The notes beneath the pieces are model-generated. The model was not told the DNA's origin and made no database searches. It saw only the letters and a list, made by a program, of their open reading frames with translations. From sequence record MK327943.1: a stretch of DNA of 64,000 nucleotides; one strand, written 5' to 3'. The DNA is from Escherichia phage vB_EcoM_G53. Shown one piece after another: positions 972 to 59,595 of this stretch. The position numbers and the translations under genes were made by a program. Every line of letters starts with the position of its first letter. The first letter of the stretch is position 1.

Positions 972-1447
972 CTCAAATTCCTGCATTCGGTAATAAAACG
1001 TTCAACTTCATTATTCTTGGCTTTTATCTTGTCTTTATGTTCTTGTAAACTACTTTTAATAAGATTAATAATGATAGCGACGGTGCCGCCGCCAATGATG
1101 CCACCAATAATACTTACGATAGTAGATGCTAATAAGATAGCAATAATATCAACAAAACCGAAAGAACTCACCTTAGTACTAAAAAACCATACCGACGGTA
1201 CAAATATAATCCATCCTGTTATCCATTGGCACTTATTGAAAAACTTTTCAAGCTCAGCTTGAGTTGTTCGTATTACTTCATCGATAGGTTGATATCCATT
1301 AATGTATCTGTTCACGATAATACCTGCTGGCTGGTCGATTTTAAATTCTTGGCAAATATGTTTCACTAAGTAGGATGGACATCCTGTCCAATCTACTGAA
1401 TAGTATGAAATACCTTCGTTGCCATCGTCTATATTATTGTTAATCAT
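968..1447 (-). CDS. small membrane protein with C-terminal ExFIxECR tail (family member 1)
   Basis: 159 aa; hydrophobic stretches WIIFVPSVWFF and IIAILLASTIVSIIGGIIGGGTVAIIINLI; ends ERFITECRNLR; TAATG overlap with upstream gene. Confidence 0.55.
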   Translation of the reverse strand: MINNNIDDGNEGISYYSVDWTGCPSYLVKHICQEFKIDQPAGIIVNRYINGYQPIDEVIRTTQAELEKFFNKCQWITGWIIFVPSVWFFSTKVSSFGFVDIIAILLASTIVSIIGGIIGGGTVAIIINLIKSSLQEHKDKIKAKNNEVERFITECRNLR

Positions 1448-2133
1448 TACCAGCCTTCCATAGGGAATTCCAGATAAACTTGAGCATTGACACGAATTTC
1501 ATTGGTAATCTTTTTAACTCGGTCTGTATTACGAGATACACGTCCGAACCAACGCCATCCATTACTAATTGCACGAGAACCAGTGTGCCATGTTTGCCAA
1601 TCAAACTGAAGAAGAGTACGGTCTGGAGCTTCCCATTTCTCTAGTTCACCTTTTTCAATTTTTTCGAGGACTTCTTTGTGCCACTGACGATAGATAAGTT
1701 CGCCATCAGGAATCTGACTGAACTCTGCAGTTCCTGTTGCAAAATGAGTAGGACACACATCAGCGTTAACAAGACCAAGAATATGTTCAGAATGGTAACG
1801 AGGGTTGTCATAGTCAGGTTGTCCTGCAGTAATAAAGTGTTGTCCAACTGGAATATCAGGGCGTGGAACATCGTCATGGTGATATCCAGGAATAGCAGGG
1901 TACCAACCAGGCATCAGCATATGAACCCGAGAATCAAATACAACATGTTGATTAGTCCAATCAATTGGGAGATTGGCAATAAAGCTACGAGTGATTGAGC
2001 CACCATTATCCCAAGCAAAACCCAAATCACAATTAAAGAACATTGGTTCATTTTTGATTCGGTCATTTTGTACGTTATGTGCAAAACTACCAACTGCACG
2101 AGCTTGACTATTAAACACTTTAGAACTATTCAT
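1447..2133 (-). CDS. hypothetical protein (228 aa); tentative 2OG-Fe(II) oxygenase-like residue pattern
   Basis: Long ORF with ATG and coupling to flanking genes; HHDD ... WHTGSR ... GRVSR pattern loosely resembles HxD...H...RxS; not verified. Confidence 0.55.
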   Translation of the reverse strand: MNSSKVFNSQARAVGSFAHNVQNDRIKNEPMFFNCDLGFAWDNGGSITRSFIANLPIDWTNQHVVFDSRVHMLMPGWYPAIPGYHHDDVPRPDIPVGQHFITAGQPDYDNPRYHSEHILGLVNADVCPTHFATGTAEFSQIPDGELIYRQWHKEVLEKIEKGELEKWEAPDRTLLQFDWQTWHTGSRAISNGWRWFGRVSRNTDRVKKITNEIRVNAQVYLEFPMEGW

Positions 2134-2134
2134 A

Positions 2135-2440
2135 TTATTTTCCTCGACATTCTTTAATGAAATTTTCTAGATTGGTAGATTCAATAGCTTTTTTACGAGC
2201 TTCTGTGTGTTCTTCTTCGGACAATTTACGTTTATAATTGACCCAGACATTATGGTCGAAACCAGACGTGGCATATAATAACAAAGCTCCAACGAATAGC
2301 AAAAATGGTGATAAAAATATACAACCAGGAACACCATCCATACTGTAAGCCTTTTGTAATACTGCAACAGAAAGAGTTGCGTAAAAAGGTGATGCAAGTA
2401 TTGTTAAAAGGCCAATTCGGTTGGTTTCGCCTAATTTCAT
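2135..2440 (-). CDS. small membrane protein with C-terminal ExFIxECR tail (family member 2)
   Basis: 101 aa; two hydrophobic segments; ends LENFIKECRGK; first gene after PeSL promoter at 2461-2498. Confidence 0.55.
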   Translation of the reverse strand: MKLGETNRIGLLTILASPFYATLSVAVLQKAYSMDGVPGCIFLSPFLLFVGALLLYATSGFDHNVWVNYKRKLSEEEHTEARKKAIESTNLENFIKECRGK

Positions 2441-2460
2441 AATATTCTCCTCATGTTTTA

Positions 2461-2498
2461 ATAGGACTACTATAATATAGCCCTATCAGTTTGTACAC
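2461..2498 (-). promoter_or_regulatory. early promoter with inverted repeat (PeSL-type), weaker -35 (TGTACA)
   Basis: Minus strand TGTACA-N17-TATAGT; inverted repeat ATAGGACT / AGCCCTAT brackets the -10. Confidence 0.45.
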
Positions 2499-2699
2499 TT
2501 ATTTTGACATTTCTTCGATGTCACGACGATACCCATCACGAACTTCACGAAGAGCTTCAAGGCCACACATAGGCTCGATACCAGTAATGTGAACTTGATT
2601 AATCTGATACTCTACATCTTCTAACTGAGCGAAAACATAACGACGTTCTGCTGCACAACCAGGTTTAGCTTTACCGAAACGTTTATTCAAAGTAGTCAT
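2499..2699 (-). CDS. hypothetical protein (66 aa)
   Basis: ORF track 2499..2717; start placed at ATG 2699 preceded by GGAG; lies between two PeSL promoters. Confidence 0.5.
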   Translation of the reverse strand: MTTLNKRFGKAKPGCAAERRYVFAQLEDVEYQINQVHITGIEPMCGLEALREVRDGYRRDIEEMSK

Positions 2700-2728
2700 T
2701 TTTATATCTCCATTCACTCATTTGTTTT

Positions 2729-2766
2729 GATAGGTCTATAGTATCAACAACTACAGACCTTGTAAA
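2729..2766 (-). promoter_or_regulatory. early promoter (PeSL-type)
   Basis: Minus strand TTTACA (2761-2766) - 17 bp - TACTAT (2738-2743); short inverted repeat TGATA / TATCA around the -10. Confidence 0.6.
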
Positions 2767-2779
2767 CTGTTTTGCGAAA

Positions 2780-3736
2780 TTATTTGAAAGGTTTTACCAT
2801 ATGGAAATTTTGTTTGAAACGTTTGACGTAATCGTCGTGTCCTAAGCTTTGGTACATACTTACTACTTTGCTATAATTTTCCCAAGCGAACTCACGGAAC
2901 CATCCTGATGTGATTGATGTACAGACCTTTTCAAGGGCCATCATAAAACTATCACGTGGATGGATTTTAAAGTCGTTAGGAATCTGTGAACGTTCAAGAG
3001 CTAATACACAAGCTTCTTCATATACACCGGCTAATTTAACCATTTCTGGTAATGATTCGAACTTCTCGCGTGATGTCATAACTTCTGAGCCTTCTTTCAT
3101 ATAAAACTTATAAGCAGGCTGGTCAGTTAGTGCAATGGCTTCATGGATAGTATCATGGTCATACGTATAGATGTCATCTTTAAAGAACGCACTTTTAGAA
3201 GTGTCAAGAACTGGGTGAGCATAATTCAAGGTTTCTTTCTGGCGTTTCAGCATAATTTCAGTAAGTTCATCGTTCAGTGTAACACCTTTACCACGAAGAT
3301 ACTGAATATGGTTCATAGTCTTTAAAAAGAATGGATTATTTTTCTTGAAACGATGAGACATCTTAATTGCAAGACATATCTCAGGAGTTGCCCAGTAAAA
3401 CCCGTTCAAACGGTCTTTAGTCAAATTTTTCTTGGCGTATTTTAAAAGGTCATAAGAAGACGTGAAATCTTCAGGAGTGAGTTCACCGACTAGTTCGCGA
3501 ACGTTAGTGAGAGCCGGAACGATGTATGCTTCAAAATGAGTTTCGCGTCCATTATGGAAGCATTTGAAAACTTGGACATCAGGGTTATCTTGGTGAACAT
3601 ATACACCCATCATTTGATTTTTGAATGCATTCCAAGAACCTTGGTCCGCAATAAAGTCCCAATCACTATTTTTAATAGCGCTAGAATCAATAAGACCGTG
3701 ATAGTGAAGTGCACGAGAACCAATAACTAACATCAT
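2780..3736 (-). CDS. hypothetical protein (318 aa); N-terminal GS...DWD is weakly nucleotidyltransferase-like
   Basis: Long ORF, SD GAGGAAAAT upstream of ATG 3736; motif IGSRALHYHG...SDWDF; no secure domain call. Confidence 0.6.
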   Translation of the reverse strand: MMLVIGSRALHYHGLIDSSAIKNSDWDFIADQGSWNAFKNQMMGVYVHQDNPDVQVFKCFHNGRETHFEAYIVPALTNVRELVGELTPEDFTSSYDLLKYAKKNLTKDRLNGFYWATPEICLAIKMSHRFKKNNPFFLKTMNHIQYLRGKGVTLNDELTEIMLKRQKETLNYAHPVLDTSKSAFFKDDIYTYDHDTIHEAIALTDQPAYKFYMKEGSEVMTSREKFESLPEMVKLAGVYEEACVLALERSQIPNDFKIHPRDSFMMALEKVCTSITSGWFREFAWENYSKVVSMYQSLGHDDYVKRFKQNFHMVKPFK

Positions 3737-3764
3737 AATATTTTCCTCGGATTAATTCATTAAC

Positions 3765-4004
3765 TTAAATTTCACGACATGCGATATTATATTCATCCCA
3801 GAGGTCATCATGTGAAGCCTCTACCAATGGAACGATTGTACCGTTTATGTCTTCATTATAAGGGCAAATTGTACAGTGCGCATCTTCGAATCGGATGCCT
3901 TTGTGTTCAGATTTTTTATAACGCATATCGAATATCTTTGCAAACTTTTCACGAGTAATGGTTTTACCAACCACTTTGGTTCCGATACTTTCGTAATAAA
4001 TCAT
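3765..4004 (-). CDS. hypothetical protein (79 aa), Cys/His-containing
   Basis: ORF track 3765..4016; ATG 4004 has GGAG 8 nt upstream while ATG 4016 has no SD; contains HCTICPYNED. Confidence 0.5.
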   Translation of the reverse strand: MIYYESIGTKVVGKTITREKFAKIFDMRYKKSEHKGIRFEDAHCTICPYNEDINGTIVPLVEASHDDLWDEYNIACREI

Positions 4005-4023
4005 TGTGGACTCCATTTGTTTT

Positions 4024-4061
4024 GATAGGACTACTATAACATAGCCCTATCTTGTTGTAAA
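4024..4061 (-). promoter_or_regulatory. early promoter (PeSL-type)
   Basis: Minus strand TTTACA (4056-4061) - 17 bp - TATAGT (4033-4038); inverted repeat ATAGGACT / AGCCCTAT brackets the -10. Confidence 0.65.
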
Positions 4062-4066
4062 CTGTT

Positions 4067-4264
4067 TTAGCAAGAATAACTAGATGATACCCAGCCTTGA
4101 ACAGTGATACTATTGTGGGATAATGAGATCGCGTCCTGGAGATTCAGACCTGCGTTATCTTCAATCCATAATGTAACTTCTTCGCGTTCTTCTGTTGCAA
4201 TTTGGAACAGGTTTTCCAGAGCAGCTACTGCCGTACGTACAGCACAATCTAATTCACGAGACAT
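4067..4264 (-). CDS. small protein, GxWVxSSxxC C-terminal family (paralog 3 of 3, 65 aa)
   Basis: Ends VQGWVSSSYSC; SD TAAGGAAAC overlapping upstream stop; third of three tandem paralogs. Confidence 0.55.
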   Translation of the reverse strand: MSRELDCAVRTAVAALENLFQIATEEREEVTLWIEDNAGLNLQDAISLSHNSITVQGWVSSSYSC

Positions 4265-4273
4265 ATTGTTTCC

Positions 4274-4546
4274 TTAGCAAGTGTGAGAAGATGCGACCCA
4301 ACCACCAGTTTCGAGGCTCAGGTTGTAGTCGTATTGGTAAACGTCAGCCCATTCAGCATAGCCGTTTTTTGTACAACGTTCAAGATCGGCTTTAAGATGT
4401 CCGGGTGAATGATAGGTTCCACCCATACCATAAGCTGGGTACAAGTTGAACGTTGTGTTTTGTTTATCAGCAATTTCTTTGGCAGCCTCAATAGCTGCAT
4501 AGATTTTTGCTACAGCTTCAGCCAGTTCGGTTTGTTCTTTAGACAT
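4274..4546 (-). CDS. small protein, GxWVxSSxxC C-terminal family (paralog 2 of 3, 90 aa)
   Basis: Ends TGGWVASSHTC; shares YGxGGTY with paralog 1; SD TAAGGAAT overlapping upstream stop. Confidence 0.55.
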   Translation of the reverse strand: MSKEQTELAEAVAKIYAAIEAAKEIADKQNTTFNLYPAYGMGGTYHSPGHLKADLERCTKNGYAEWADVYQYDYNLSLETGGWVASSHTC

Positions 4547-4555
4547 AACGATTCC

Positions 4556-4861
4556 TTAGCACAACGCAGAAGACGAAACCCAAGCACCTTCAGTAATAAC
4601 GTAACCATTACCTTCACGCTTAACATCGCCACCATTATTTTCAATTTCATCTTTCATCCACTGGGATACGATTTCACCCTTAGGATAATAAGTACGACCG
4701 CTACCATAATCACCTACAGAAAATGATACGGCATATTGGTCTGCGATCTTTGTTGCTTCTTCTTCGATACGTTCAGCTTGATTCAGAAGTTTATAAATTG
4801 CATCTGAAGCGGATTTGGCATCATTAAACTCTGGTACTTTAATTTCAATAATCTTACTCAT
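4556..4861 (-). CDS. small protein, GxWVxSSxxC C-terminal family (paralog 1 of 3, 101 aa)
   Basis: Ends EGAWVSSSALC; ATGA start/stop overlap with upstream membrane protein gene. Confidence 0.55.
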   Translation of the reverse strand: MSKIIEIKVPEFNDAKSASDAIYKLLNQAERIEEEATKIADQYAVSFSVGDYGSGRTYYPKGEIVSQWMKDEIENNGGDVKREGNGYVITEGAWVSSSALC

Positions 4862-5217
4862 TTTCTACATTCCTTAATAAAGTTTTCGATTGTTTCATTT
4901 TCACGTTTAGCTAGAAGTTCATTATAACTAATCATTTGAGAAGCGTAAATCTTTTTATTTTTCTTGTTATGGTTTATAAAATCGTAGTAAAAATAGACTA
5001 CAGTACAAAATGATGCGATGGATGCAAAGGCTTGGGTATACCGTAAGTCCTGCCATTGGTCTGTGAATCCACCAGTGTTCCCTATAAATCCTAACACAAC
5101 GCCGTCAATAAGAAATCCAACTAATCCAAAGGCAAATCCCATGCCAATACTCATAATAAAAATTAGAATGTTCTCACCAAGAGAAGGCCATACGGTTAAG
5201 AGTTGAGGCTTTTGCAT
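4858..5217 (-). CDS. small membrane protein with C-terminal ExFIxECR tail (family member 3)
   Basis: 119 aa; hydrophobic segments; ends IENFIKECRK; SD TTAAGGAAATAAG upstream. Confidence 0.55.
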   Translation of the reverse strand: MQKPQLLTVWPSLGENILIFIMSIGMGFAFGLVGFLIDGVVLGFIGNTGGFTDQWQDLRYTQAFASIASFCTVVYFYYDFINHNKKNKKIYASQMISYNELLAKRENETIENFIKECRK

Positions 5218-5591
5218 CTTATTTCCTTAACGAATTCCATAGCTTCTTCATATTCATACTTTTTAACAGCTTCATCATACTGAGCTTGGGCTTTTGCGCA
5301 CTGAACTTTCCATTCTCTTAATCGGGCTCTGTGATGACGGCCTTGGTGCCAATATCCTACCCAATTAATAGGCATTAATAAAAACGGTACAATAAGTGGT
5401 GCGACGAACATTAATGAAAATGCTGCATCAGACGATATAACTTCACTAGAATCTAAAACAGCTCCTATAATCATAAAGATTAAAAATGCTAAAGCTAAAA
5501 TAGGGCCAAATAATACTTCATTTGGGATTAATTTACGCTTGTATTCATACGCCCAGGGCTTACTTGGCATGTATAGGGTTGGCTTTGACAT
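5196..5591 (-). CDS. small membrane protein with ExFVKEIRC-type C-terminal tail (family member 4)
   Basis: ORF track 5196..5621; start moved to ATG 5591 (MSKPTLYM) just after the conserved tail codons of the upstream gene; hydrophobic segments. Confidence 0.5.
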   Translation of the reverse strand: MSKPTLYMPSKPWAYEYKRKLIPNEVLFGPILALAFLIFMIIGAVLDSSEVISSDAAFSLMFVAPLIVPFLLMPINWVGYWHQGRHHRARLREWKVQCAKAQAQYDEAVKKYEYEEAMEFVKEIRCKSLNS

Positions 5592-6162
5592 ATTCTCTAC
5601 ATTCCATAATAAATTGCTCAAGGATTAAATTGTTAGTGAAATTAGGACTAACAACCATAGTTTCATAAAGCGCATCAATAGCACTTAAAGCATCAACTCT
5701 TTTAAGCAAAGGCTTGCCTTCATACATAGTTTCAGAATCGATGATTAACGTAAAGTAATATTTTTTATTATCGACTAGAACTTCTGTATCGATATAAAAC
5801 ATATTAGACCTCAGAAGCTTATCTCTAAAGCCATAATAATCTTCAGAGCGTTCGCTGATATATTCCCATTCAGTGTTTAAACAACAAACAGACCACGTAG
5901 GAGCAACGAAATCAGTGAATCTAATATCATGGTCTGCAACTAGTTTAGCAATAGCTCCGATATCATGAATCATAATACCTGGGGCTAATAAAGATTTTCT
6001 GCTATGGCTAGCCGTTTTCTCGGTGGTCTCATAAGAAGACGACCAGTACCATTTACGTCCGGTTGCAACATATCGTAATGAATCAACTAAAGACGTAGGT
6101 GGATTTACCTTATCTCGGAACTCTTCGAACATTGAGTCAATATCATTATTTTGGTTTCGCAT
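5560..6162 (-). CDS. hypothetical protein (200 aa) with ExFIMECR motif near C-terminus
   Basis: ORF track 5560..6183 begins at TTG; ATG 6162 has a strong AAGGAG SD; contains LEQFIMECREY. Confidence 0.55.
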   Translation of the reverse strand: MRNQNNDIDSMFEEFRDKVNPPTSLVDSLRYVATGRKWYWSSSYETTEKTASHSRKSLLAPGIMIHDIGAIAKLVADHDIRFTDFVAPTWSVCCLNTEWEYISERSEDYYGFRDKLLRSNMFYIDTEVLVDNKKYYFTLIIDSETMYEGKPLLKRVDALSAIDALYETMVVSPNFTNNLILEQFIMECREYVKANPIHAK

Positions 6163-6181
6163 GTTAACTCCTTTATTATCC

Positions 6182-6203
6182 AAAAGGAGGACCGGAGTCC
6201 TCC
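6182..6203 (-). terminator. hairpin plus short U-run (weak terminator or attenuator) between operon genes
   Basis: GGAGGAC-CGGA-GTCCTCC perfect 7-bp stem followed by UUUU on the minus strand; sits in the leader of the next gene. Confidence 0.45.
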
Positions 6204-6211
6204 GTATTATT

Positions 6212-6805
6212 TTATTTCAAAGAGTTAATATATTCTTGTACATCAGCAGAAGTGGTTTCGACGCCGGCTGGAGTGCCATTGAACGTTTCAACACGAGTCA
6301 GAGTGTCTTCGATATCAACCTTAGTCAGTGCAGCTATTTCAATTACATCATCGGCCGTAGAGATACCAAGGGCATTAGCTGCTCGAGTTTCACGAATGTA
6401 TTCGAGTTTGATTGCCAGATTCTGACGAGCATCGTCAAGTTCAACCACCTTACGAGCAATTTCAATTCGCATAGCGGCATACCCGTCAGCTTTTGTATTA
6501 AGTTGTTCGGCAGTTCGACGATACAGAAGACCAAGCTTAGCATGCATAGTAACATCTTGTCCTTCAGCCAGGAGCTTACGAATTTCACGTTCCTTAGAAG
6601 CGGCTTGCTTGTTCTTTTCATTAACAAGTTCGCGAATACGTTTTTCTTCATTAATAGATTTAACAGAAGCCGTTTTTAGTTCTTTGATTTGGGTAATCAA
6701 CTTATCTGCAGCTGCGTTATACTGTTCTTCGACAGTCAGATTTTTAGCCATAGCAGTACCCAGTTTAGTGCGGATGAATTCAACAAGTTTCTTCAGTGTG
6801 TTCAT
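6212..6805 (-). CDS. coiled-coil protein (197 aa); weak resemblance to PspA/IM30-type proteins, unverified
   Basis: ORF track 6212..6820 begins at TTG; ATG 6805 preceded by AAGGT; Lys/Glu/Ala/Arg-rich heptad-like sequence; first gene after promoter at 6841-6875. Confidence 0.55.
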
Positions 6806-6840
6806 ATTATTACCTTTCAATTGGTGGTTTATTATCCAAT

Positions 6841-6875
6841 GAGAGCATTATACTCTGCTCTCAAGAGTTTGTAAA
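6841..6875 (-). promoter_or_regulatory. early promoter (PeSL-type) with consensus -10
   Basis: Minus strand TTTACA (6870-6875) - 17 bp - TATAAT (6847-6852); inverted repeat GAGAGC / GCTCTC brackets the -10. Confidence 0.65.
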
Positions 6876-7103
6876 TTATTTTTTAATCAAATTGACATAA
6901 AACTTGGCGTCTTCTGGGTGCATGCCTTCGCAGTATTCTTCAACCATGAACTTCTTAACAGCTTCATAAGGACCACTCAGATTAAGCTCAGTTGTCCAGA
7001 ACTTGGAATCTTGGGCTGAATCGATATGAACTTCAGGGTGACGGTTGCGAATAACTTCTTCTGTGTATTCATAATCAACGACATCAATACTAACTTTAGC
7101 CAT
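6876..7103 (-). CDS. hypothetical protein (75 aa)
   Basis: ATG 7103 preceded by GAGAGGAAAA; single-gene cassette between two PeSL promoters. Confidence 0.5.
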   Translation of the reverse strand: MAKVSIDVVDYEYTEEVIRNRHPEVHIDSAQDSKFWTTELNLSGPYEAVKKFMVEEYCEGMHPEDAKFYVNLIKK

Positions 7104-7126
7104 TTTGTTTTCCTCTCATTTGATTT

Positions 7127-7164
7127 GATAGGTCTATAGTAACACCGTCCTTGGTGTTTGTACA
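7127..7164 (-). promoter_or_regulatory. early promoter (PeSL-type), weaker -35 (TGTACA)
   Basis: Minus strand TGTACA - 17 bp - TACTAT (7136-7141); TGATA / TATCA-type flanking repeat. Confidence 0.5.
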
Positions 7165-7668
7165 TCATTTATTTTTAATTTTGCAAATTTTTCCAGCTTC
7201 AATGCACGCAGCATAGATGATGCTCTGGGCAATTTTATTGCTAGTGGACCTTGCAATCACACTAAGAACAATTTCTTTTTCTTCACCACCACATCCCCAG
7301 CTATTTTGCCCATGTGTACCTTTAACTACGGCTGAAACTTCAACAGAACGTCCACCATCAGAAGTCTTAACATCCACAACCCAATCACCGTCTTTCTCAT
7401 TAACCTGTGGTTTATCCCAAGAAATACTAATATATGATTCACCGTCAATAGAAGTCGCCGGGTTTTTCTCTACAGTAAGACCTTCGCTTTCTAACCATTC
7501 AATAGTATTTGAGCATAAATCTGTAGAACATCTCATCGGAAAGCGGCATGATTTTTCACCTTTAGATGCAGCATCATACATCTTTTCCAAAATACGCTTT
7601 TGTACATTTTTAAAAACAACGTCACGCGATTCTTCAGATTTTTTATTCAGTTCAGTATAAAGACTCAT
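7165..7668 (-). CDS. hypothetical protein (167 aa)
   Basis: ATG 7668 preceded by GAGGAAAA; single-gene cassette after PeSL promoter at 7690-7726. Confidence 0.55.
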   Translation of the reverse strand: MSLYTELNKKSEESRDVVFKNVQKRILEKMYDAASKGEKSCRFPMRCSTDLCSNTIEWLESEGLTVEKNPATSIDGESYISISWDKPQVNEKDGDWVVDVKTSDGGRSVEVSAVVKGTHGQNSWGCGGEEKEIVLSVIARSTSNKIAQSIIYAACIEAGKICKIKNK

Positions 7669-7689
7669 AATGTTTTCCTCATTTGTTTT

Positions 7690-7726
7690 GATAGGTCTAT
7701 AGTATCATACCTCAAGGAGAAGTAAA
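7690..7726 (-). promoter_or_regulatory. early promoter (PeSL-type)
   Basis: Minus strand TTTACT - 16 bp - TACTAT (7699-7704). Confidence 0.5.
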
Positions 7727-7761
7727 CAACTTTGTGAAAAATTTATCTGCCCTAGATGCCC

Positions 7762-7788
7762 GAAAGCCCCTTCCTATGGTTGGGGCTT
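7762..7788 (-). other. GC-rich hairpin downstream of the internal-protein-like gene (no U-run)
   Basis: AAGCCCC ... GGGGCTT 7-bp stem; related to the hairpins at 8482-8505 and 50921-50944. Confidence 0.3.
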
Positions 7789-7805
7789 AAGTGATTGTAA
7801 CTTAA

Positions 7806-8432
7806 TTATTTACGGGTTTTTGCATACTGAGCAGCGTCAGCAGCCAAACGACCTGCTTGTCGAAGTTTTTCTTTAATCTCATCATGAAGTGGTTGAGTAT
7901 ACTTCAAACCTTCGATAGTCAAATAAAGACGATAAAGGTCTGGGGTATCAAGGTTGTTGATATGTTGGCCATTACGAAGAATATTGAATTCACGAACGAG
8001 TGAAGACGTATCAGATTCAATATCACGAACAAGCGAAGATAGTTGTTTATATTTTTTTTCCAGGCTAGAAGTATCAAACTTAAGAGCAGGAGCTTTAGGA
8101 GTTGCTTTTACTTCCGGCTTAGGCTCAGGTTTTGCTACTGCTTTAGGGGTCGCAGGTTTAGGAGTGGTAGGAGCAGGTTTCACTTTAGGCGAACCAGATT
8201 TAGCAGAAACACCACCACTAACAATATCTTTGAATGCTTTAGAAGCTCTGTAATATTCTTTTTGGCTGGAAGTGTCGATACCGTACATGGCTTGAACGTT
8301 TTTGAAAAACTCTGTACTAGTTTTTGTACCAGAAATAGCATCGTAAGCAGCTTGCCATTTCTCTTTTGTCATACGTACACCGGCTTCGGTGATTACTTCC
8401 GTTTCGGCTAAAAATTCATTAAAAGTATACAT
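7806..8432 (-). CDS. internal-protein-like capsid cargo candidate (208 aa) with capsid-targeting N-terminus and Pro/Lys-rich linker
   Basis: N-terminus MYTFNEFLAETE resembles the T4 internal-protein targeting sequence MKTYQEFIAE (prohead protease cuts after the LxE motif); low-complexity KPAPTTPKPATPKAVAKPEPKPEVKATPKAP; late promoter TATAAATA 35 nt upstream. Confidence 0.6.
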   Translation of the reverse strand: MYTFNEFLAETEVITEAGVRMTKEKWQAAYDAISGTKTSTEFFKNVQAMYGIDTSSQKEYYRASKAFKDIVSGGVSAKSGSPKVKPAPTTPKPATPKAVAKPEPKPEVKATPKAPALKFDTSSLEKKYKQLSSLVRDIESDTSSLVREFNILRNGQHINNLDTPDLYRLYLTIEGLKYTQPLHDEIKEKLRQAGRLAADAAQYAKTRK

Positions 8433-8467
8433 TGATGGTCCTTAGAAAGTAGGTTTATTGTTTACTA

Positions 8468-8475
8468 TATTTATA
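8468..8475 (-). promoter_or_regulatory. late promoter (TATAAATA) for the internal-protein-like gene
   Basis: Exact TATAAATA on the minus strand about 35 nt upstream of ATG 8432, immediately after the terminator at 8477-8505. Confidence 0.55.
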
Positions 8476-8476
8476 C

Positions 8477-8505
8477 AAAAAAGCCCCGACCTTTCGGAAG
8501 GGGCT
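8477..8505 (-). terminator. rho-independent terminator ending the tRNA/stable-RNA early transcript
   Basis: AGCCCC...GGGGCT stem (imperfect extension, UUCC-type loop) followed by UUUUUU on the minus strand. Confidence 0.7.
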
Positions 8506-8519
8506 ATATACCTTGTCGG

Positions 8520-8800
8520 GGTCCCACCTGCTAAGGCAAGTGTTTGTACGAAACGCCGGGATTCGAACCCGGTTATTAAGCAGTTGACGCTACTCAATAT
8601 TTTTAAAAGGCCATATCTCGACCATATCCGAACGTTCCGTCAAAAACGCTACTCGGCTTACGACAAAGATATTTCCTCGAATCGATAATTCTGTGCGCCG
8701 TTTCTGCTGTGATGTAAGGGGATATTAACAAATCGTAAAGATTTATTAAGACCAGTCCTTACTCAGGGAACATCAGTCCGACGTCTTGCCGGTAGCGACC
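8520..8800 (-). ncRNA. putative stable small RNA(s) with a tRNA-like 3' domain (comparable to T4 species 1/2 RNAs); boundaries approximate
   Basis: About 300 nt non-coding between CDS end 8808 and the terminator; minus strand has a canonical T-arm CCGGGTTCGAATCCCGG plus acceptor-like 3' strand but no complete cloverleaf. Confidence 0.3.
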
Positions 8801-8807
8801 CGGCTTC

Positions 8808-9152
8808 TTATTTTGGCATATCGTCAATTTGCTCTCGACGCCGACGCCATAGATTAATCGCTTCATAGGCACATTCTGCGTTTGGTATATGACGGCAATA
8901 ATATAATGATTCGCGTTTCTGGAACCGATGTTGCAACGGGATTTCGTTTAAAAGGTCTTTACGGTCAAAGTATTCAAAACTAGTTAACCCAGAACGGTTT
9001 TTAAGAAACTTCCAATGTCCGAATTCATTTTGAAAATAAACATAATCAGCATGCTGATACAGCGAATTAATTAACCTATCGGAAATAACTGTTTCACGTT
9101 CGTTAAAATAAAACGTTAAGTCATGAACTACCAGATAAATATTGCCTTTCAT
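8808..9152 (-). CDS. hypothetical protein (114 aa) immediately downstream of the tRNA genes
   Basis: ORF track 8808..9200 would overlap the tRNA; ATG 9152 preceded by GAGGAAAAT is used instead. Confidence 0.5.
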   Translation of the reverse strand: MKGNIYLVVHDLTFYFNERETVISDRLINSLYQHADYVYFQNEFGHWKFLKNRSGLTSFEYFDRKDLLNEIPLQHRFQKRESLYYCRHIPNAECAYEAINLWRRRREQIDDMPK

Positions 9153-9170
9153 ATTTTCCTCACTTGAAGT

Positions 9171-9247
<77 letters not shown>

Positions 9248-9253
9248 AATATA

Positions 9254-9327
9254 TGACCCAGACCAGATTCGAACTGGTAACCTTTCCCTTATGAGGGGAC
9301 TGCTGCTAACCATTGAGCTACAGGGCC
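9254..9327 (-). tRNA. tRNA with CAU anticodon (Met, or Ile with modified C34 as in the T4 tRNA-Ile)
   Basis: Manual fold: acceptor GGCCCTG/CTGGGTC (one mismatch), anticodon loop CTCATAA, T-arm ACCAG-TTCGAAT-CTGGT; D-arm slightly atypical. Confidence 0.65.
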
Positions 9328-9406
9328 TAAATAACTTTCTATTATGAAAGGCACTTTAGAGCACCTTTGGTAATAGAGGGTATGAATTAATAATAACACA
9401 TAATTC

Positions 9407-9922
9407 TTAAAGCAAATCAATCATTTTAACAGTCGGCAAAACGATTTCTTCTTCAATATAAGCAAATTCAACACATTCAACTACGCGCAAGAAATCATAA
9501 TCATAATATTCAGAAGCATGGCCAAGAATATCAATGAGACCTTCTGATACTAAATATCCATTCTCATGGAACAGGTCAAATACACGCGATTCGTCTTCTT
9601 CAGATTTATTACCAAGGTCGACTTCAATATCAAAGACCTTTTTAATGAATTCTGGATAAAGCTGGTCTGAGAACAATCCTTCAACCAAGTATTCATAGAT
9701 TAAAAGCGAACAATCACTGAATAGTGTATTACCACAGTAACGTTCAGCTTTAGTGCTGGAATGACGGCTCTTAAATTTCTTCAAAAGATATTTAAACTGT
9801 TGGAGCTCATGCTCTTCCACACCAAATAATGTTTTGGTTTTATAGTTGTCGCCGTCATTTTCCCAAGTAGTGACATCAATTACGTAACCCTTAGGAATTG
9901 TACTGCCTAAACAAATATTCAT
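9407..9922 (-). CDS. hypothetical protein (171 aa)
   Basis: ATG 9922 preceded by GGTGAG; last ORF of the early operon before the tRNAs. Confidence 0.55.
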   Translation of the reverse strand: MNICLGSTIPKGYVIDVTTWENDGDNYKTKTLFGVEEHELQQFKYLLKKFKSRHSSTKAERYCGNTLFSDCSLLIYEYLVEGLFSDQLYPEFIKKVFDIEVDLGNKSEEDESRVFDLFHENGYLVSEGLIDILGHASEYYDYDFLRVVECVEFAYIEEEIVLPTVKMIDLL

Positions 9923-9926
9923 TTAC

Positions 9927-10217
9927 TCACCGTACCATATTAATGTAATTATATTCAATGCAACATAATTTCAAAGGATTCTTGAAAATATCATATTCAA
10001 GAGGACCTTTTTCTGTTTCAATAAAGAAATCAAAGTTAACTGTGTTAAATTTATCGTCTTCACAGAGTAATTTAACTTGCGAAGATGAACGGTCGATATA
10101 AACCTTTTCAACCTCAAAGTTAGTCAGAATACCGTAGTCGTCGACTAGTGCTTTAGCTGCACGTTGATCGCTTTCATATCCATTCTCAACGGATTTTACC
10201 TTAGCATAAAGAATCAT
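9927..10217 (-). CDS. hypothetical protein (96 aa)
   Basis: ATG 10217 preceded by GGTGGAA; ATGA overlap with upstream gene. Confidence 0.55.
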   Translation of the reverse strand: MILYAKVKSVENGYESDQRAAKALVDDYGILTNFEVEKVYIDRSSSQVKLLCEDDKFNTVNFDFFIETEKGPLEYDIFKNPLKLCCIEYNYINMVR

Positions 10218-10576
10218 GAATGTTCCACCATTTCAAAGGTATGAGCATCAACAATATGATACCAGTCAAAATTTTCTTCTGCGTTTTTATAAATTTCGCG
10301 AAGAGCCTCAACAGTTTTTCCTGTAGCAACAAGGTCGTCAATACCACCAAGAGGATAACAGTCATAACCAGCAAACAGAAGGAAATTAATAGTTTCTGTA
10401 GGTTCTGGATGCAGAACTCCGTTATCGTCTACCACTTCAAAGAAAGTGTAAGAAGGAGTACAAGTTTTAATCCAGGCCCATGCTTGAGCTGCTGAATCAA
10501 ACGGATTACGGAATAAACGACAATCTGGGTCTTTAGAAGGATTTGCTTCAAAATCCGCATATATGTGATATTTCAT
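10214..10576 (-). CDS. hypothetical protein (120 aa)
   Basis: ORF track 10214..10594; start placed at ATG 10576 (MKYHIY) preceded by AAGGTGAG. Confidence 0.55.
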   Translation of the reverse strand: MKYHIYADFEANPSKDPDCRLFRNPFDSAAQAWAWIKTCTPSYTFFEVVDDNGVLHPEPTETINFLLFAGYDCYPLGGIDDLVATGKTVEALREIYKNAEENFDWYHIVDAHTFEMVEHS

Positions 10577-10577
10577 T

Positions 10578-10763
10578 TTACTCACCTTTTGCAATTTTAT
10601 CCATAACGATAGCGATTAAGCCGATTAGAAATGCTACTACCAATGAGATAGAATTTTCTGTTGTTGACAGTAGTCCACAAATGAATCCTACAAACATCGA
10701 AAAACTAAAAGCCATTGAAGCAATTACTACAGCAACATTACGAATCAGTTCAGCGCGTTTCAT
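10578..10763 (-). CDS. small membrane protein (61 aa)
   Basis: ORF track 10578..10784; ATG 10763 preceded by GGAG; one long hydrophobic segment. Confidence 0.5.
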   Translation of the reverse strand: MKRAELIRNVAVVIASMAFSFSMFVGFICGLLSTTENSISLVVAFLIGLIAIVMDKIAKGE

Positions 10764-10791
10764 TTTATTTCTCCATTTACTCATTTGATTT

Positions 10792-10829
10792 GATAGGACT
10801 ACTATAACATAGTCCTATCATCATGTAAA
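10792..10829 (-). promoter_or_regulatory. early promoter (PeSL-type)
   Basis: Minus strand TTTACA (10824-10829) - 17 bp - TATAGT (10801-10806); perfect 8-bp inverted repeat ATAGGACT / AGTCCTAT brackets the -10. Confidence 0.65.
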
Positions 10830-10832
10830 CTA

Positions 10833-11096
10833 TTAAATTCCAGCTTCGCGTTTAACATAATCGACATAAGCTTGGATAGCTTTCTTGCTGGTAATTTTTA
10901 CCTGGCCACGACCATTGCCTTCTTTAGAGTTTTTCTTAACAACTACATTACCATCTTTAACACCCCATACATGGACATAAGTACCGATGTTTCGGTCGTA
11001 GAACATTGCATGGTCGTTGTTGTAAGAGAATGATTCGTAGTTCTCCGACAGAGTAGAAGATTGAGATTCAGCGATAAATTCTTTATACGTTTTCAT
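10833..11096 (-). CDS. internal-protein-like capsid cargo candidate (87 aa)
   Basis: N-terminus MKTYKEFIAES matches the T4 internal-protein capsid-targeting sequence; own PeSL promoter. Confidence 0.6.
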   Translation of the reverse strand: MKTYKEFIAESQSSTLSENYESFSYNNDHAMFYDRNIGTYVHVWGVKDGNVVVKKNSKEGNGRGQVKITSKKAIQAYVDYVKREAGI

Positions 11097-11122
11097 TTGT
11101 TTTTCCGTTTGGTTGTTGATTT

Positions 11123-11160
11123 GATAGGACTACTATAACATAGTCCTATCTGCATGTAAA
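11123..11160 (-). promoter_or_regulatory. early promoter (PeSL-type)
   Basis: Minus strand TTTACA (11155-11160) - 17 bp - TATAGT (11132-11137); same 26-bp palindrome as at 10792. Confidence 0.65.
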
Positions 11161-11164
11161 CTAC

Positions 11165-11452
11165 TTACAGAAGAGTTTTTGCAATAATTTTAAGCTGAGC
11201 TACAGAAATATGCTTAGCTTTAAACAGTGCGGTCTCTTCAGCCGGAGAGATAACAATAGTAGCGCCATCTTTCTTAGCAGACCATCCATCCCCTAAGTAA
11301 ACAGTACCTTTTACTTCTTCGCCATCAACCAGACTAATCATCGGTTTACCCTCACGTCCTTTATTTGCTTTAATAACTTCGGAAGTAAGGGTTGCTTCGG
11401 TCAGAGTAGAAACGTTAGCAACAGGTGATATAAATTCTTTATAGGTTTTCAT
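11165..11452 (-). CDS. internal-protein-like capsid cargo candidate (95 aa), at the position T4 ipI occupies next to 57B
   Basis: N-terminus MKTYKEFIS...LTEA resembles the capsid-targeting sequence; SD AAGGAAAT; orthology to ipI not established. Confidence 0.6.
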   Translation of the reverse strand: MKTYKEFISPVANVSTLTEATLTSEVIKANKGREGKPMISLVDGEEVKGTVYLGDGWSAKKDGATIVISPAEETALFKAKHISVAQLKIIAKTLL

Positions 11453-11480
11453 TTTATTTCCTTGAGGTTGTTTATTTGAT

Positions 11481-11515
11481 AGGATGATAGTAACACACCA
11501 TCATCCTTATGTAAA
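11481..11515 (-). promoter_or_regulatory. early promoter (PeSL-type)
   Basis: Minus strand TTTACA (11510-11515) - 17 bp - TACTAT (11487-11492); inverted repeat AGGATGAT / ATCATCCT brackets the -10. Confidence 0.65.
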
Positions 11516-11529
11516 CTGTTTTGTGAAAA

Positions 11530-12215
<686 letters not shown>

Positions 12216-12219
12216 TTTA

Positions 12220-12954
12220 TTACCTTAAGATTGTTTCAATTTTAGAATAAAGCTCTTCTAAAGAGCCGTCGTTTGTAATAACTAAATCGCCTTCTTCAAT
12301 AGGCAACCCAGCTTCTGTAATATGTTTATCGGTGGATTCCGTACCAGAGCGAACCACATGAATAACTGTAGCACCCATCGCTCTAGCGGTTTCCATTTCA
12401 TGGACTTGGCGTGTATCGGTTACAACATAGTAATCGAAATCACTTCCAATATAATCCATATAGTTTAATGCAAAAAGCTTAACCCAATACATACGGTCAA
12501 ATAAATTAACGACAACATCCGTACCGAGGGCTTGCATAAGACGGCGGATTGACCATGTGTCGTTGATATTATTTATAGCTTCACGCAGGGCTTCATATGG
12601 TTTAATATCTAGATACGAATATCCACCTTCTAACGATGATAATACTTTAACATTATTAATCGGTAAATATTGACTTTGCAAATAAATTAGCGCTTCTTCC
12701 AATAATTCAATAACATCCAACTTATTGAGATTTAATGGTGTTTCACGGTCGTATCCAATGCCTTCAAAGTATTCGTATTTCAACTCTGTGAATACATCAG
12801 GATTTTCAGCATGCCTACGTCCCCAGGCTATTGCTAGAGCGTCTTTAATTGGATATGCTAATTGGTATTTTACGGATTTAAAGTTTGAATTGATGTAATC
12901 AGCAGTGGTGTCTTTACCACTACGTTTGATGCCACTTAAAAAGATTAGCTCCAT
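12220..12954 (-). CDS. 1: deoxynucleoside monophosphate kinase (gp1)
   Basis: 244 aa; N-terminal P-loop FLSGIKRSGKDT; close to my recollection of T4 gp1. Confidence 0.9.
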   Translation of the reverse strand: MELIFLSGIKRSGKDTTADYINSNFKSVKYQLAYPIKDALAIAWGRRHAENPDVFTELKYEYFEGIGYDRETPLNLNKLDVIELLEEALIYLQSQYLPINNVKVLSSLEGGYSYLDIKPYEALREAINNINDTWSIRRLMQALGTDVVVNLFDRMYWVKLFALNYMDYIGSDFDYYVVTDTRQVHEMETARAMGATVIHVVRSGTESTDKHITEAGLPIEEGDLVITNDGSLEELYSKIETILR

Positions 12955-42024: not shown

Positions 42025-43593
42025 ATGACTACTATCAAAACTAAAGCTCAGCTCGTAGACAAATGGAAAGAACTGCTGGAAGGTGAAGGCCTGCCGGAAA
42101 TCGCTAATAGCAAGCAGGCTATTATCGCTAAAATCTTCGAAAACCAGGAAAAAGATTTCGAAGTATCCCCTGAATATAAAGACGAGAAAATCGCTCAGGC
42201 ATTTGGTTCTTTCTTGACCGAAGCTGAAATTGGTGGTGACCATGGTTATAATGCTCAGAACATCGCAGCAGGTCAAACCTCTGGTGCAGTAACCCAAATT
42301 GGGCCGGCAGTTATGGGTATGGTTCGTCGTGCTATTCCTAATCTGATCGCCTTTGATATTTGTGGTGTTCAGCCTATGAACAGCCCGACCGGTCAGGTAT
42401 TTGCTCTCCGTGCAGTATATGGTAAAGACCCTATCGCTGCTGGCGCTAAAGAAGCTTTCCATCCGATGTATGCCCCAGACGCGATGTTCTCTGGTCAGGG
42501 TGCTGCTAAGAAATTCCCAGCTCTGGCTGCTGACACTACTACTGTTGTAGGTGATATCTATACTCACTTCTTCCAAGAAACTGGTACTGTATATCTGCAA
42601 GCTTCTGCTATCGTAACACTTGATTCTGGTGCAACTGATGCAGCTAAATTAGATGCAGAAGTTAAGAAACAAATGGAAGCTGGTGCACTGGTAGAAATCG
42701 CTGAAGGTATGGCTACTTCTATCGCTGAACTCCAGGAAGGTTTCAACGGTTCTACCGATAACCCATGGAATGAAATGGGCTTCCGTATCGACAAACAAGT
42801 TATTGAAGCTAAATCTCGTCAGCTGAAAGCAGCTTACTCCATAGAATTGGCACAAGACCTCCGTGCAGTACACGGTATGGATGCTGATGCTGAACTGAGC
42901 GGTATTCTGGCTACAGAAATTATGCTAGAAATCAACCGTGAAGTTGTTGATTGGATTAACTACTCTGCACAGGTTGGTAAATCTGGTATGACCCTGACTC
43001 CGGGTTCTAAAGCTGGTGTATTTGACTTCCAGGACCCGATTGATATCCGTGGTGCTCGTTGGGCCGGTGAAAGCTTTAAATCTCTGTTGTTCCAGATTGA
43101 TAAAGAAGCAGTTGAAATTGCTCGTCAAACCGGTCGTGGTGAAGGTAACTTCATTATCGCTTCCCGTAACGTAGTTAACGTACTGGCTTCAGTTGATACT
43201 GGTATTTCTTACGCTGCACAGGGTCTGGCTTCTGGTTTTAATACCGACACTACTAAGTCTGTATTTGCCGGTGTACTTGGTGGTAAATACCGCGTATACA
43301 TCGACCAGTATGCTAAACAGGATTACTTCACCGTTGGTTACAAAGGCGCTAACGAAATGGATGCAGGTATTTACTATGCTCCTTACGTTGCACTTACCCC
43401 ACTGCGTGGTTCCGATCCTAAGAACTTCCAGCCGGTAATGGGCTTTAAAACTCGTTATGGTATCGGTGTTAACCCGTTTGCTGAAAGTTCCCTGCAGGCT
43501 CCAGGTGCTCGCATCCAGTCCGGTATGCCGTCTATCCTGAACAGCCTTGGTAAGAATGCTTACTTCCGCCGTGTATATGTAAAAGGCATCTAA
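42025..43593 (+). CDS. 23: major capsid protein gp23
   Basis: 522 aa, T4 size and order. Confidence 0.95.
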   Translation: MTTIKTKAQLVDKWKELLEGEGLPEIANSKQAIIAKIFENQEKDFEVSPEYKDEKIAQAFGSFLTEAEIGGDHGYNAQNIAAGQTSGAVTQIGPAVMGMVRRAIPNLIAFDICGVQPMNSPTGQVFALRAVYGKDPIAAGAKEAFHPMYAPDAMFSGQGAAKKFPALAADTTTVVGDIYTHFFQETGTVYLQASAIVTLDSGATDAAKLDAEVKKQMEAGALVEIAEGMATSIAELQEGFNGSTDNPWNEMGFRIDKQVIEAKSRQLKAAYSIELAQDLRAVHGMDADAELSGILATEIMLEINREVVDWINYSAQVGKSGMTLTPGSKAGVFDFQDPIDIRGARWAGESFKSLLFQIDKEAVEIARQTGRGEGNFIIASRNVVNVLASVDTGISYAAQGLASGFNTDTTKSVFAGVLGGKYRVYIDQYAKQDYFTVGYKGANEMDAGIYYAPYVALTPLRGSDPKNFQPVMGFKTRYGIGVNPFAESSLQAPGARIQSGMPSILNSLGKNAYFRRVYVKGI

Positions 43594-43617: not shown

Positions 43618-43647
43618 GGGAGACTTCGGTCTCCCATTTTTGGTTTT
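43618..43647 (+). terminator. rho-independent terminator after gene 23
   Basis: GGGAGAC-TTCG-GTCTCCC then ATTTTTGGTTTT. Confidence 0.8.
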
Positions 43648-43915
43648 ATTTCTGTGCAATTTCGATGTAAGTTTTCAAAATATTTTGCCAATTAGGCATA
43701 CCTTCTTGGACATATGCCGGAGAACCGTCTTTGTTTTTGAATGATGCAAGTTTATCAGTGGCCCAATAACCTTTAGCTCGAGCTTCAGAATCAACTTTCA
43801 TCCATACTTTGTTGAAGGCATTACCATTAACTTTTGCACCATATTTTTCTACTAACTTAACTGCTTCAGCTTCCAGAACTTTTAAAGTATCTCGTAAGAA
43901 ACGTGCTTTAGTCAT
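43646..43915 (-). CDS. hypothetical protein (89 aa) on opposite strand between genes 23 and 24
   Basis: ATG 43915 with own PeSL early promoter; occupies the site where T4 carries segD but has no endonuclease motifs. Confidence 0.55.
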   Translation of the reverse strand: MTKARFLRDTLKVLEAEAVKLVEKYGAKVNGNAFNKVWMKVDSEARAKGYWATDKLASFKNKDGSPAYVQEGMPNWQNILKTYIEIAQK

Positions 43916-43936
43916 TTTGTTTACTCCTCTGTAGTT

Positions 43937-43974
43937 GATAAGTCTATAGTATCACATACCAAATACGTTGTAAA
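43937..43974 (-). promoter_or_regulatory. early promoter (PeSL-type)
   Basis: Minus strand TTTACA (43969-43974) - 17 bp - TACTAT (43946-43951). Confidence 0.6.
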
Positions 43975-43981
43975 CAATCTT

Positions 43982-43989
43982 TATAAATA
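43982..43989 (+). promoter_or_regulatory. late promoter (TATAAATA) for gene 24
   Basis: Exact TATAAATA about 28 nt upstream of the gene 24 ATG. Confidence 0.6.
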
Positions 43990-44016
43990 ATCTATATCAC
44001 ATAAGGAAAAAATGCA

Positions 44017-59243: not shown

Positions 59244-59537
59244 TTATTTACGGAATGAAAGGAATGCTGGTGCTCTGAATGGAGTATCATCTTTAGAGTA
59301 TTTAACTAATACGACCATTGGTACCTCTGTTTCTAAATGACCTGTCACTACACCGACAAAAATTTGATCAGTGTGCTCAGGGTCACGAAAGTTTTTAAGA
59401 GGTTCCATAGCAATATGGAATGCACCTGGGAATACTCGATTCAATTCATCAATCACAGCTTCGTTAAAAACATCATCCGCTGGGATAGCATCTTCAACTA
59501 CTAGTTCTTGGCCATTAAAGCGAAGCATAGATTTCAT
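59244..59537 (-). CDS. hypothetical protein (97 aa), alt.-1 position
   Basis: ORF track 59244..59609 would cover the promoter; ATG 59537 preceded by GAGGAAAA. Confidence 0.55.
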   Translation of the reverse strand: MKSMLRFNGQELVVEDAIPADDVFNEAVIDELNRVFPGAFHIAMEPLKNFRDPEHTDQIFVGVVTGHLETEVPMVVLVKYSKDDTPFRAPAFLSFRK

Positions 59538-59560
59538 AACGTTTTCCTCATGTTGTTGAT

Positions 59561-59595
59561 GGGATGATAGTATCACACATCCATGTGTTTGTAAA
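59561..59595 (-). promoter_or_regulatory. early promoter (PeSL-type) inside the 3' end region of alt
   Basis: Minus strand TTTACA (59590-59595) - 17 bp - TACTAT (59567-59572); inverted repeat GGATG / CATCC. Confidence 0.6.

Follow-up and report, generated by a model that had tools for sequence, protein, structure and literature searches.

Promoter-early stem-loop (PeSL) elements are defined by a stem-loop that is combined with an early promoter and an A/T-rich upstream tract; in the accessible parts of the report on phages RB49 and phi1, these components occupy the interval from a stop codon to the ribosome-binding site that follows it (Arbiol et al., 2010, PMC2839356). Copies are concentrated there in hyperplastic regions, in which they flank small genes of unassigned function, and indels between close relatives end in the elements; a mini-circle model was put forward and circular intermediates were reported for both phages. 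In RB49, the boxes of the elements are near-perfect TTGACA/TATAAT, the stems are G/C-rich (polyG/polyC) and behave as strong terminators, and the authors regard the T-even versions as analogues, not homologues. For the T-even phages, the same text credits Repoila et al. (1994) with elements at the internal-protein locus that are based on T4 early promoters and carry weaker, AT-rich stem-loops, and the sections of a later study dealing with T4 and PST give the pattern TTTACW-N17-TAYWAT with AGNA-loop-TCNT stems (Comeau et al., 2014, PMC4122927). Here, a family of such elements is analyzed in a 64,000-nt stretch of Escherichia phage vB_EcoM_G53 (MK327943.1), termed the window in the following. 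The source is a Mosigvirus, i.e. an RB69-group T4-like phage, and nine of the window's 11 copies lie within the 9-kb e–57B accessory region (the span in the following). These elements are probably copies of one early-promoter module, many of which would form a hairpin in read-through RNA and which would recombine as direct repeats.

A reading of the window made from its sequence alone (the sequence-only reading) had identified the elements as PeSLs, and the comparison with described systems supports this identification. In contrast to RB49, the elements have a T4-type GTTTACA -35 box and A/U-rich stems with G-U pairs, and no T-run follows. They match the T-even variant in its consensus, in its AGNA-loop-TCNT stems (AGGA...TCCT here) and in the weak, AT-rich character of the stem-loops reported at internal-protein loci, and they occur at the same ipI locus with promoter-plus-leader repeats as flanks. 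A bridging hairpin of this type is also found at the T4 ipI, trna.4 and e.7 promoters, with arms that are different yet complementary. What differs is that this RB69-group genome had not been catalogued in the consulted portions of the T-even PeSL papers, which mention neither a link to stop codons nor a bias towards the sense strand. The elements also share the UP-like A tract, GTTTAC, TGn, -10 box and C-rich bases before the start with the early promoters of T4 and RB69. An UP/-35/TGn/-10 layout is described for T4 (Hinton, 2010, PMC2988021), and 57 early promoters, many of them upstream of novel ORFs, were predicted for RB69 (Nolan et al., 2006, PMC1524935); the available text of both papers treats such sites as promoters only, and the terms "inverted repeat" and "stem-loop" are absent from that of Nolan et al. 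(2006). Finally, integron cassettes, an analogy drawn in the PeSL literature, are likewise small single-gene units with repeated, imperfectly palindromic bounds, whereas the units described here have their own promoter each and neither an integrase nor an attC-type site.

All 11 elements were located on the minus strand, to the base where the sequence-only reading had placed them. Nine lie in the span: A (11473-11515, the higher coordinate being the first base of the -35 box here and for the other elements), B (11118-11160), C (10787-10829), D (7685-7726), E (7122-7164), F (6833-6875), G (4019-4061), H (2724-2766) and I (2455-2497). The two outside it are J (59553-59595) and K (43932-43974). 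Every site fits T(T/G)TAC(A/T), a 16-17-nt spacer and TA(C/T)(T/A)(A/G)T. The uniform TTTACA box with 17-bp spacing that had been proposed is not confirmed, as TTTACA is present at 8/11 sites, TGTACA replaces it in elements E and I, and element D has TTTACT with a 16-nt spacer; the spacer of the other eight in-span elements is 17 nt. The -10 box reads TACTAT in elements A, D, E and H, TATAGT in B, C, G and I, and TATAAT in F, and an extended -10 box (TGn) was flagged at five in-span sites (A, B, C, G and H). At 10/11 sites the -35 box begins 0-17 nt past a stop codon, the gap being 79 nt at element D, and start codons follow about 25-35 nt past the -10 box.

The bare pattern TTTACA-N16-18-TANNNT yielded 10 matches against 5.4 expected, a number reached in 7/100 shuffles, and a generic sigma-70 scan yielded 39 matches against 34 expected. 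Neither is significant alone, and only an extended, strand-specific motif is informative. For this extended motif, a matrix was built from the 11 sites and refined iteratively across the genome of ~172 kb, represented by the window together with three loci from its closest relative. It retrieved 44 sites on the minus (early-gene) strand and none on the plus strand, which provides an unambiguous internal control. The family consensus comprises an A-rich tract, (G)TTTACA, tg-TAYWRT and then agaCCTATCAAa, and the 3' arm of the inverted repeat is part of it. The earlier proposal that the architecture is conserved and not any one sequence is correct only in part, as this strongly conserved consensus includes the 3' arm and a single arm pair is found in nine of the 16 hairpin promoters.

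Hairpins across the -10 box were assessed by folding each element from the -35 box to +8 with only -10-bridging pairs allowed, and the spacer was shuffled as control. A strong inverted repeat was detected at seven of the 11 sites (A, B, C, F, G, H and I), with helices of 10-12 pairs including G-U (8 pairs in a continuous stem in element F), an RNA folding energy (dG) of -13.8 to -17.5 kcal/mol and a spacer-shuffle p≤0.005. The arms quoted in the sequence-only reading are present and correct, whereas its claim of a 5-8 bp inverted repeat in each case is incorrect: only these seven sites qualify, and their stems are longer (8-12 bp). The individual hairpins are those of element A (11507-11481, AGGATGATGG / CTATCATCCT, dG -14.9, p=0.005), element B (11150-11123, GATAGGACTAT / GTAGTCCTATC, dG -16.6, p=0.001), element C (10820-10791, dG -17.5, p=0.001), element F (6863-6840, TGAGAGCA / TGCTCTCA, dG -13.8, p=0.005), element G (4051-4024, GATAGGGCTAT / GTAGTCCTATC with an internal G-U pair, dG -16.0, p=0.001), element H (2760-2732, AGGTCTGTAG / CTATAGACCT in a register unlike the others, dG -15.5, p=0.001) and element I (2488-2459, TGATAGGGCTAT / GTAGTCCTATTA, dG -14.5, p=0.001). 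At the remaining four sites the bridging hairpin does not go beyond chance (dG -2 to -5, p 0.2-0.64): element D (dG -2.0, p=0.64), element E (dG -3.1, p=0.20), element J, which has a 5-bp GGATG/CATCC match only (dG -5.1, p=0.22), and element K (dG -3.8, p=0.45). These four sites, plain early promoters by their sequence, limit the PeSL identification.

Genome-wide, a bridging hairpin was present in 16-17/44 promoters at a spacer-shuffle p≤0.012, against about 0.5 expected, and the hairpin energies over the 44 promoters are bimodal. At least six unrelated arm families occur in the genome (ATAGGACT, AGGATGAT, GAGAGC/GGAGC, AGGTCT, GGTACAGGT and GGTGGAGTT), further arm pairs are found in T4 and phage Mizar, and the register relative to the -10 box varies by arm family, with outermost-pair index sums of 40, 42 and 47-49. 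Covariation was evident in 27 sequences of one register, selected for folding, in which 8/12 stem pairs vary on both sides, a result matched by 0/500 shuffles. The homologous site of element G reads GGACT/AGTCC, GGGCT/AGTCC (G-U) or GGGCT/AGCCC in relatives, a series that is a textbook compensatory path from A-U over G-U to G-C.

These hairpins have a preferred strand. Significant folding was obtained for 17 hairpins in the sense and eight in the antisense orientation; nine fold significantly in the sense orientation only, and none does so in the antisense orientation only. Among the stem pairs, 26 are G-U and an A-C mismatch does not occur, and the hairpin-free promoters exhibit no strand bias. 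Folded as DNA, the hairpins are weak (-4 to -9 kcal/mol, compared with -14 to -17.5 kcal/mol as RNA). This asymmetry argues for a structure in RNA, or at a minimum in the sense strand by itself, and against a two-sided cruciform. The hairpins are also tied to the position of the promoter, as all 16 hairpin promoters lie 0-14 nt past the upstream stop codon, while the gap measures at least 24 nt in 12/28 hairpin-free promoters (Fisher p=0.0014). Promoters with a long gap have a separate G+C-rich hairpin upstream in 7-8/12 cases (dG -12 to -18.5), and the window contains a case of its own before element D, where a terminator-like hairpin (7787-7765, minus strand, AGCCCC...GGGGCT, dG -13.6) precedes the promoter. 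Among the upstream hairpins at long-gap promoters (L016, L017, L018 and window 7787-7765), several have a UUCG tetraloop and a T-run, e.g. GGGAGACTTCGGTCTCCCTTTT, which was found twice. A terminator scan detected 6203-6186 and 8499-8484 and picked up none of the bridging hairpins.

The comparison of relatives at the element sites, which the sequence-only reading had suggested as a check, was performed by chained BLAST of 15 related genomes (L001-L015) that belong to one genus and share some events by descent, and its outcome favors the PeSL reading. Breakpoints cluster at the elements: although the 76-nt elements account for 5.5% of the region, 9/24 distinct breakpoints fall inside them (p=3e-6), and 15/24 fall in or within 35 nt of them (p=1e-9). 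Likewise, rearrangement in at least one relative was seen at 8/9 junctions with an element and at 6/17 without (p=0.012), and DNA inserted at elements always consists of a promoter plus an ORF. The B-to-C cassette (10830-11160, minus strand, 331 nt) is missing in 10/15 relatives, with the exchange located within a shared stretch of about 75 nt, and phage Mizar has a different internal-protein body between the same flanks. The H-to-I cassette (2498-2766, minus strand, 269 nt) is missing in HX01 (L008), RB69 (L009) and pEK20 (L014), cut exactly between the two -35 boxes. Element E is the most active site, with a promoter-plus-ORF cassette of about 215 nt inserted in at least six relatives and replacements that also begin there. 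A further promoter-plus-ORF cassette is inserted exactly at element F in phage JN02, an extra internal-protein cassette occurs at element A in RB69, and the ORF neighboring element D (7806-8432) is replaced in relatives. No rearrangement was found at element G among the 15 relatives. Since the most rearranged site, element E, is free of a hairpin, the repeated promoter sequence and not the hairpin explains the shuffling.

The exchange overlaps measure 33-75 nt and continue past the hairpin through the 5' leader to the first codons. In addition, unrelated protein bodies have the N-terminal leader MKT(Y/F)(K/Q)EF in common (10833-11096, 11165-11452, L009 16784-17110 and L001 10805-11113), indicating that the recombining repeat of the internal-protein locus runs from the promoter into the first ~10 codons. 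Mobility of the flanked genes, as had been predicted, is thus borne out where the B-to-C and H-to-I cassettes are present or absent in relatives, the point of exchange lying within the elements on their flanks, and does not extend to element J, whose locus is conserved in 150/152 matching records and whose downstream gene gives no sign of mobility. At element K, Tequatrovirus homology extending from gene 24 ends at 43968-44014, i.e. at the element or just upstream on the gene 24 side, and the match of one closer relative ends at about 43924, so that the ORF downstream of this element varies. Three events have no link to an element, namely a homing-endonuclease insertion among the tRNAs and two allele swaps. 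The insertion was observed in phage Mizar (L001 8350-9227, equivalent to window positions 9175-9253), where about 880 nt between two tRNA genes contain an ORF resembling a NUMOD3 homing endonuclease and an extra tRNA-Asn, a rearrangement route independent of promoter elements.

The explanation that accounts best for these observations, and that is held with good confidence as a whole, is that the elements are copies of an early-promoter module with a hairpin that forms in read-through RNA, and that these copies recombine as direct repeats. The module comprises, in this order, an A-rich tract, GTTTACA, a spacer of 17 nt with TGn at its end, TAYWRT, the conserved start region CCTATCAAA and a ribosome-binding site. 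Immediately after infection, the elements would be used by the host sigma-70 RNA polymerase, and they would head the transcription units of the e–57B accessory region. In seven of the nine in-span copies, the otherwise free spacer is complementary to the conserved bases that separate the -10 box from the start site. The predicted start of the local transcript is the A of CCTATCAAA, a base within the 3' arm, so that the complete hairpin would be present only in read-through RNA from the upstream gene. A comparable situation exists in T4 at e, soc, 49 and I-TevI, where a promoter lies inside a hairpin and only the read-through RNA folds. There too, the local transcript would start inside the structure and be devoid of the 5' arm. 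The T4 hairpins, however, mask the ribosome-binding site and contain a late promoter, whereas the hairpin described here is associated with an early promoter and ends about 15-25 nt ahead of the Shine-Dalgarno sequence.

In such read-through RNA, the hairpin may mark the 3' end of the upstream message, as an attenuator, as a pause site or as a block to 3'-exonucleases after cleavage in the A-rich tail. Its overlap with the promoter would result from a lack of space where the promoter directly adjoins the stop codon, and a long gap would permit an ordinary terminator hairpin upstream instead. The bridging hairpin thereby probably gives read-through RNA a 3' hairpin where a separate one has no room. 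For the rearrangements, a module of ~45-80 nt, repeated in direct orientation between small genes, would offer homology to the very active recombination system of the phage, and exchange between two copies would delete, insert or swap the promoter-plus-gene unit between them. Exchange at the elements looks like ordinary homologous recombination, and T4 is known to delete and amplify DNA via very short homologies. The precise B-to-C and H-to-I deletions in relatives would be the products expected from the formation of circular promoter-plus-ORF DNA. The kind of element is already described, and the published model is confirmed in one more lineage. The modest additions are that the hairpin overlaps the promoter only where this abuts a stop codon, that the sense strand is preferred, and that the hairpin is not needed for rearrangement.

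Several observations weigh against this explanation. The hairpin is not required at stop-codon-abutting promoters, as 16 of these are without one, and it adds nothing detectable to shuffling. The arm pair ATAGGACT/AGTCCTAT is common to 9/16 hairpin promoters genome-wide, and the abundance of hairpins is thus partly the spread of one module and not independent selection. Both the selection of the covariation sequences for folding and the shared descent of some events within a single genus reduce the weight of the respective counts. Furthermore, the bridging hairpins are followed by tails such as CAAATCAA, CAAAACAA or ATTGGATA and by no T-run, and therefore they are not canonical intrinsic terminators, which leaves the RNA role a guess among several. 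Their interpretation as intrinsic (Rho-independent) terminators was rejected for this reason.

Among the alternatives, a role of the inverted repeat in DNA survives best, albeit as an unlikely one. Here, a cruciform or single-strand hairpin would be cut, e.g. by endonuclease VII, or would stall replication, and would in this way actively start cassette exchange. The enrichment of hairpin promoters in the hyperplastic region (7/9 compared with 9/35 elsewhere, p=0.007) is in line with this possibility, but the DNA hairpins are weak, each G-T pair on one strand is an A-C mismatch on the other, and the nine sense-only hairpins likewise disfavor a two-sided cruciform. Moreover, rearrangement is just as frequent at the hairpin-free elements D and E, and the exchange overlaps extend beyond the hairpin. 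A slightly less probable alternative is that the sites are ordinary early promoters with a functionless inverted repeat, one palindromic copy having spread by duplication and the polymorphism reflecting recombination at any repeat. This would agree with the predominance of one arm pair, with a 3' arm that is retained in the consensus even without a 5' arm (L006:6660, L007:6361), with the rearrangements at hairpin-free element E and with the recombination of T4 at 6-10 bp homologies. It does not account for the at least six unrelated arm pairs that stay complementary, including those of the ipI promoter, whose arms differ between T4 and this phage, nor for the G-U intermediate and compensated form at one site; sense bias and the restriction to stop-abutting promoters are not expected from hitch-hiking either. 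That the repeat is an operator through which a dimeric phage or host protein shuts off early promoters is highly improbable and was rejected, since the palindrome does cover the -10 box, a classic repressor position, but its arms are unrelated between sites (ATAGGACT, AGGATGAT, GAGAGC, AGGTCT, GGTACAGGT, GGTGGAGTT), its register to the -10 box shifts, its stems contain G-U pairs and it is missing from 27/44 early promoters.

Within the preferred explanation of a recombining promoter module with a read-through hairpin, a more specific function can be proposed tentatively. The hairpin might be an RNA mark of read-through transcripts, neither a terminator nor a recombination signal, that is selected on the sense strand at stop-abutting early promoters and insulates neighboring cassettes from each other. 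Insulation could be achieved if cleavage in the A-rich tail left a protected 3' end, or if upstream transcription were kept from interfering with the local promoter. If this holds true, it would constitute a general design rule for the spacing-free packing of single-gene units in T4-like phages. In any case, the elements mark where an RB69-group phage gains, loses and exchanges small accessory genes, including internal proteins of the ipI type, and the anti-CBASS gene acb1 adjoins the internal-protein cassettes. The internal protein IPI of T4 has been reported to inhibit the gmrSD restriction system. A map of the elements can help to annotate transcription units, to predict which genes vary among phage isolates for therapy and to select insertion sites that are safe for phage engineering.

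The region from 2300 to 11700 is 96-98% identical to Mosigvirus genomes, e.g. those of NicPhage and phage 55. The genes of the span, all of them on the minus strand, match the e.2-to-57B region of T4, with homologues of e.3 to e.6, frd.3 and tRNA.2 to tRNA.4 as well as tRNA-Met and tRNA-Arg. It had been claimed that every accessory cassette is preceded by an element, yet only 9 of ~22 span protein genes directly follow one, the others being located inside multi-gene units, and the genes downstream of elements mostly belong to PHROG families without assigned function. Element A lies 14 nt past the stop codon of 57B/acb1 (11530-11985, minus strand) and upstream of the ipI-like gene (11165-11452, minus strand). 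Element B precedes an internal-protein-like ORF of 87 aa (10833-11096, phrog_13302) that begins with MKTYKEFI, the capsid-targeting leader of internal proteins, and element C is followed by the tRNA.4 homologue. The frd.3 homologue lies downstream of element E, and the -35 box of element F adjoins the frd.3 stop codon and precedes the e.6 homologue. The H-to-I cassette contains a 66-aa ORF (2499-2699, phrog_6200). Outside the span, element K is situated as predicted between genes 23 (gp23, 42025-43593) and 24 (gp24, 44017-45300), both at the expected places, and upstream of a minus-strand ORF (43646-43915). Element J had been assigned to the inside of the 3' end of alt (59596-61683), but its -35 box starts one base past the alt stop codon, and a DUF5498 ORF (59244-59537) follows. 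A search of 1400-12400 against Rfam at a permissive threshold returned two tRNAs only and no match at the elements.

Two sites with a good -10 box, 46816 (TTTACA) and 4949 (TTTACG), were excluded from the family because they fall below its threshold, the latter being inside an ORF. This second site (4921-4949, minus strand) is a near-consensus TTTACG-17-TATAAT within the e.3 homologue, is kept in RB69 and is devoid of the flanking consensus of the family; it may be a chance match or an internal promoter. The segment 4067-4861 (minus strand) encodes three tandem paralogues of 65, 90 and 101 aa with 31-34% identity, a common start MS(K/R) and the C-terminal motif GWV(S/A)SSxxC. In phage LH01, a divergent allele replaces the middle paralogue; the breakpoints coincide with the edges of the gene, and no promoter element takes part. 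Additionally, a non-coding segment with a tRNA-like 3' end (8510-8813, minus strand) is flanked by an ORF and a terminator; over 305 nt it shares 92% identity with T4 rnaC/rnaD, the stable "species 1 and 2" RNAs of the T4 record, has no Rfam family and is annotated in part as tRNA-Lys in one relative. Just past the 8499-8484 terminator, at ~8465-8480 (minus strand), lies a motif resembling a late promoter, TATAAATA, and downstream of it ORF 7806-8432 (minus strand) encodes a protein of 208 aa with a proline/lysine-rich repeat (phrog_2280, no Pfam hit). This unit looks like a late gene within the early region, and other DNA is found in its place in mobillu, JK45 and RB69.

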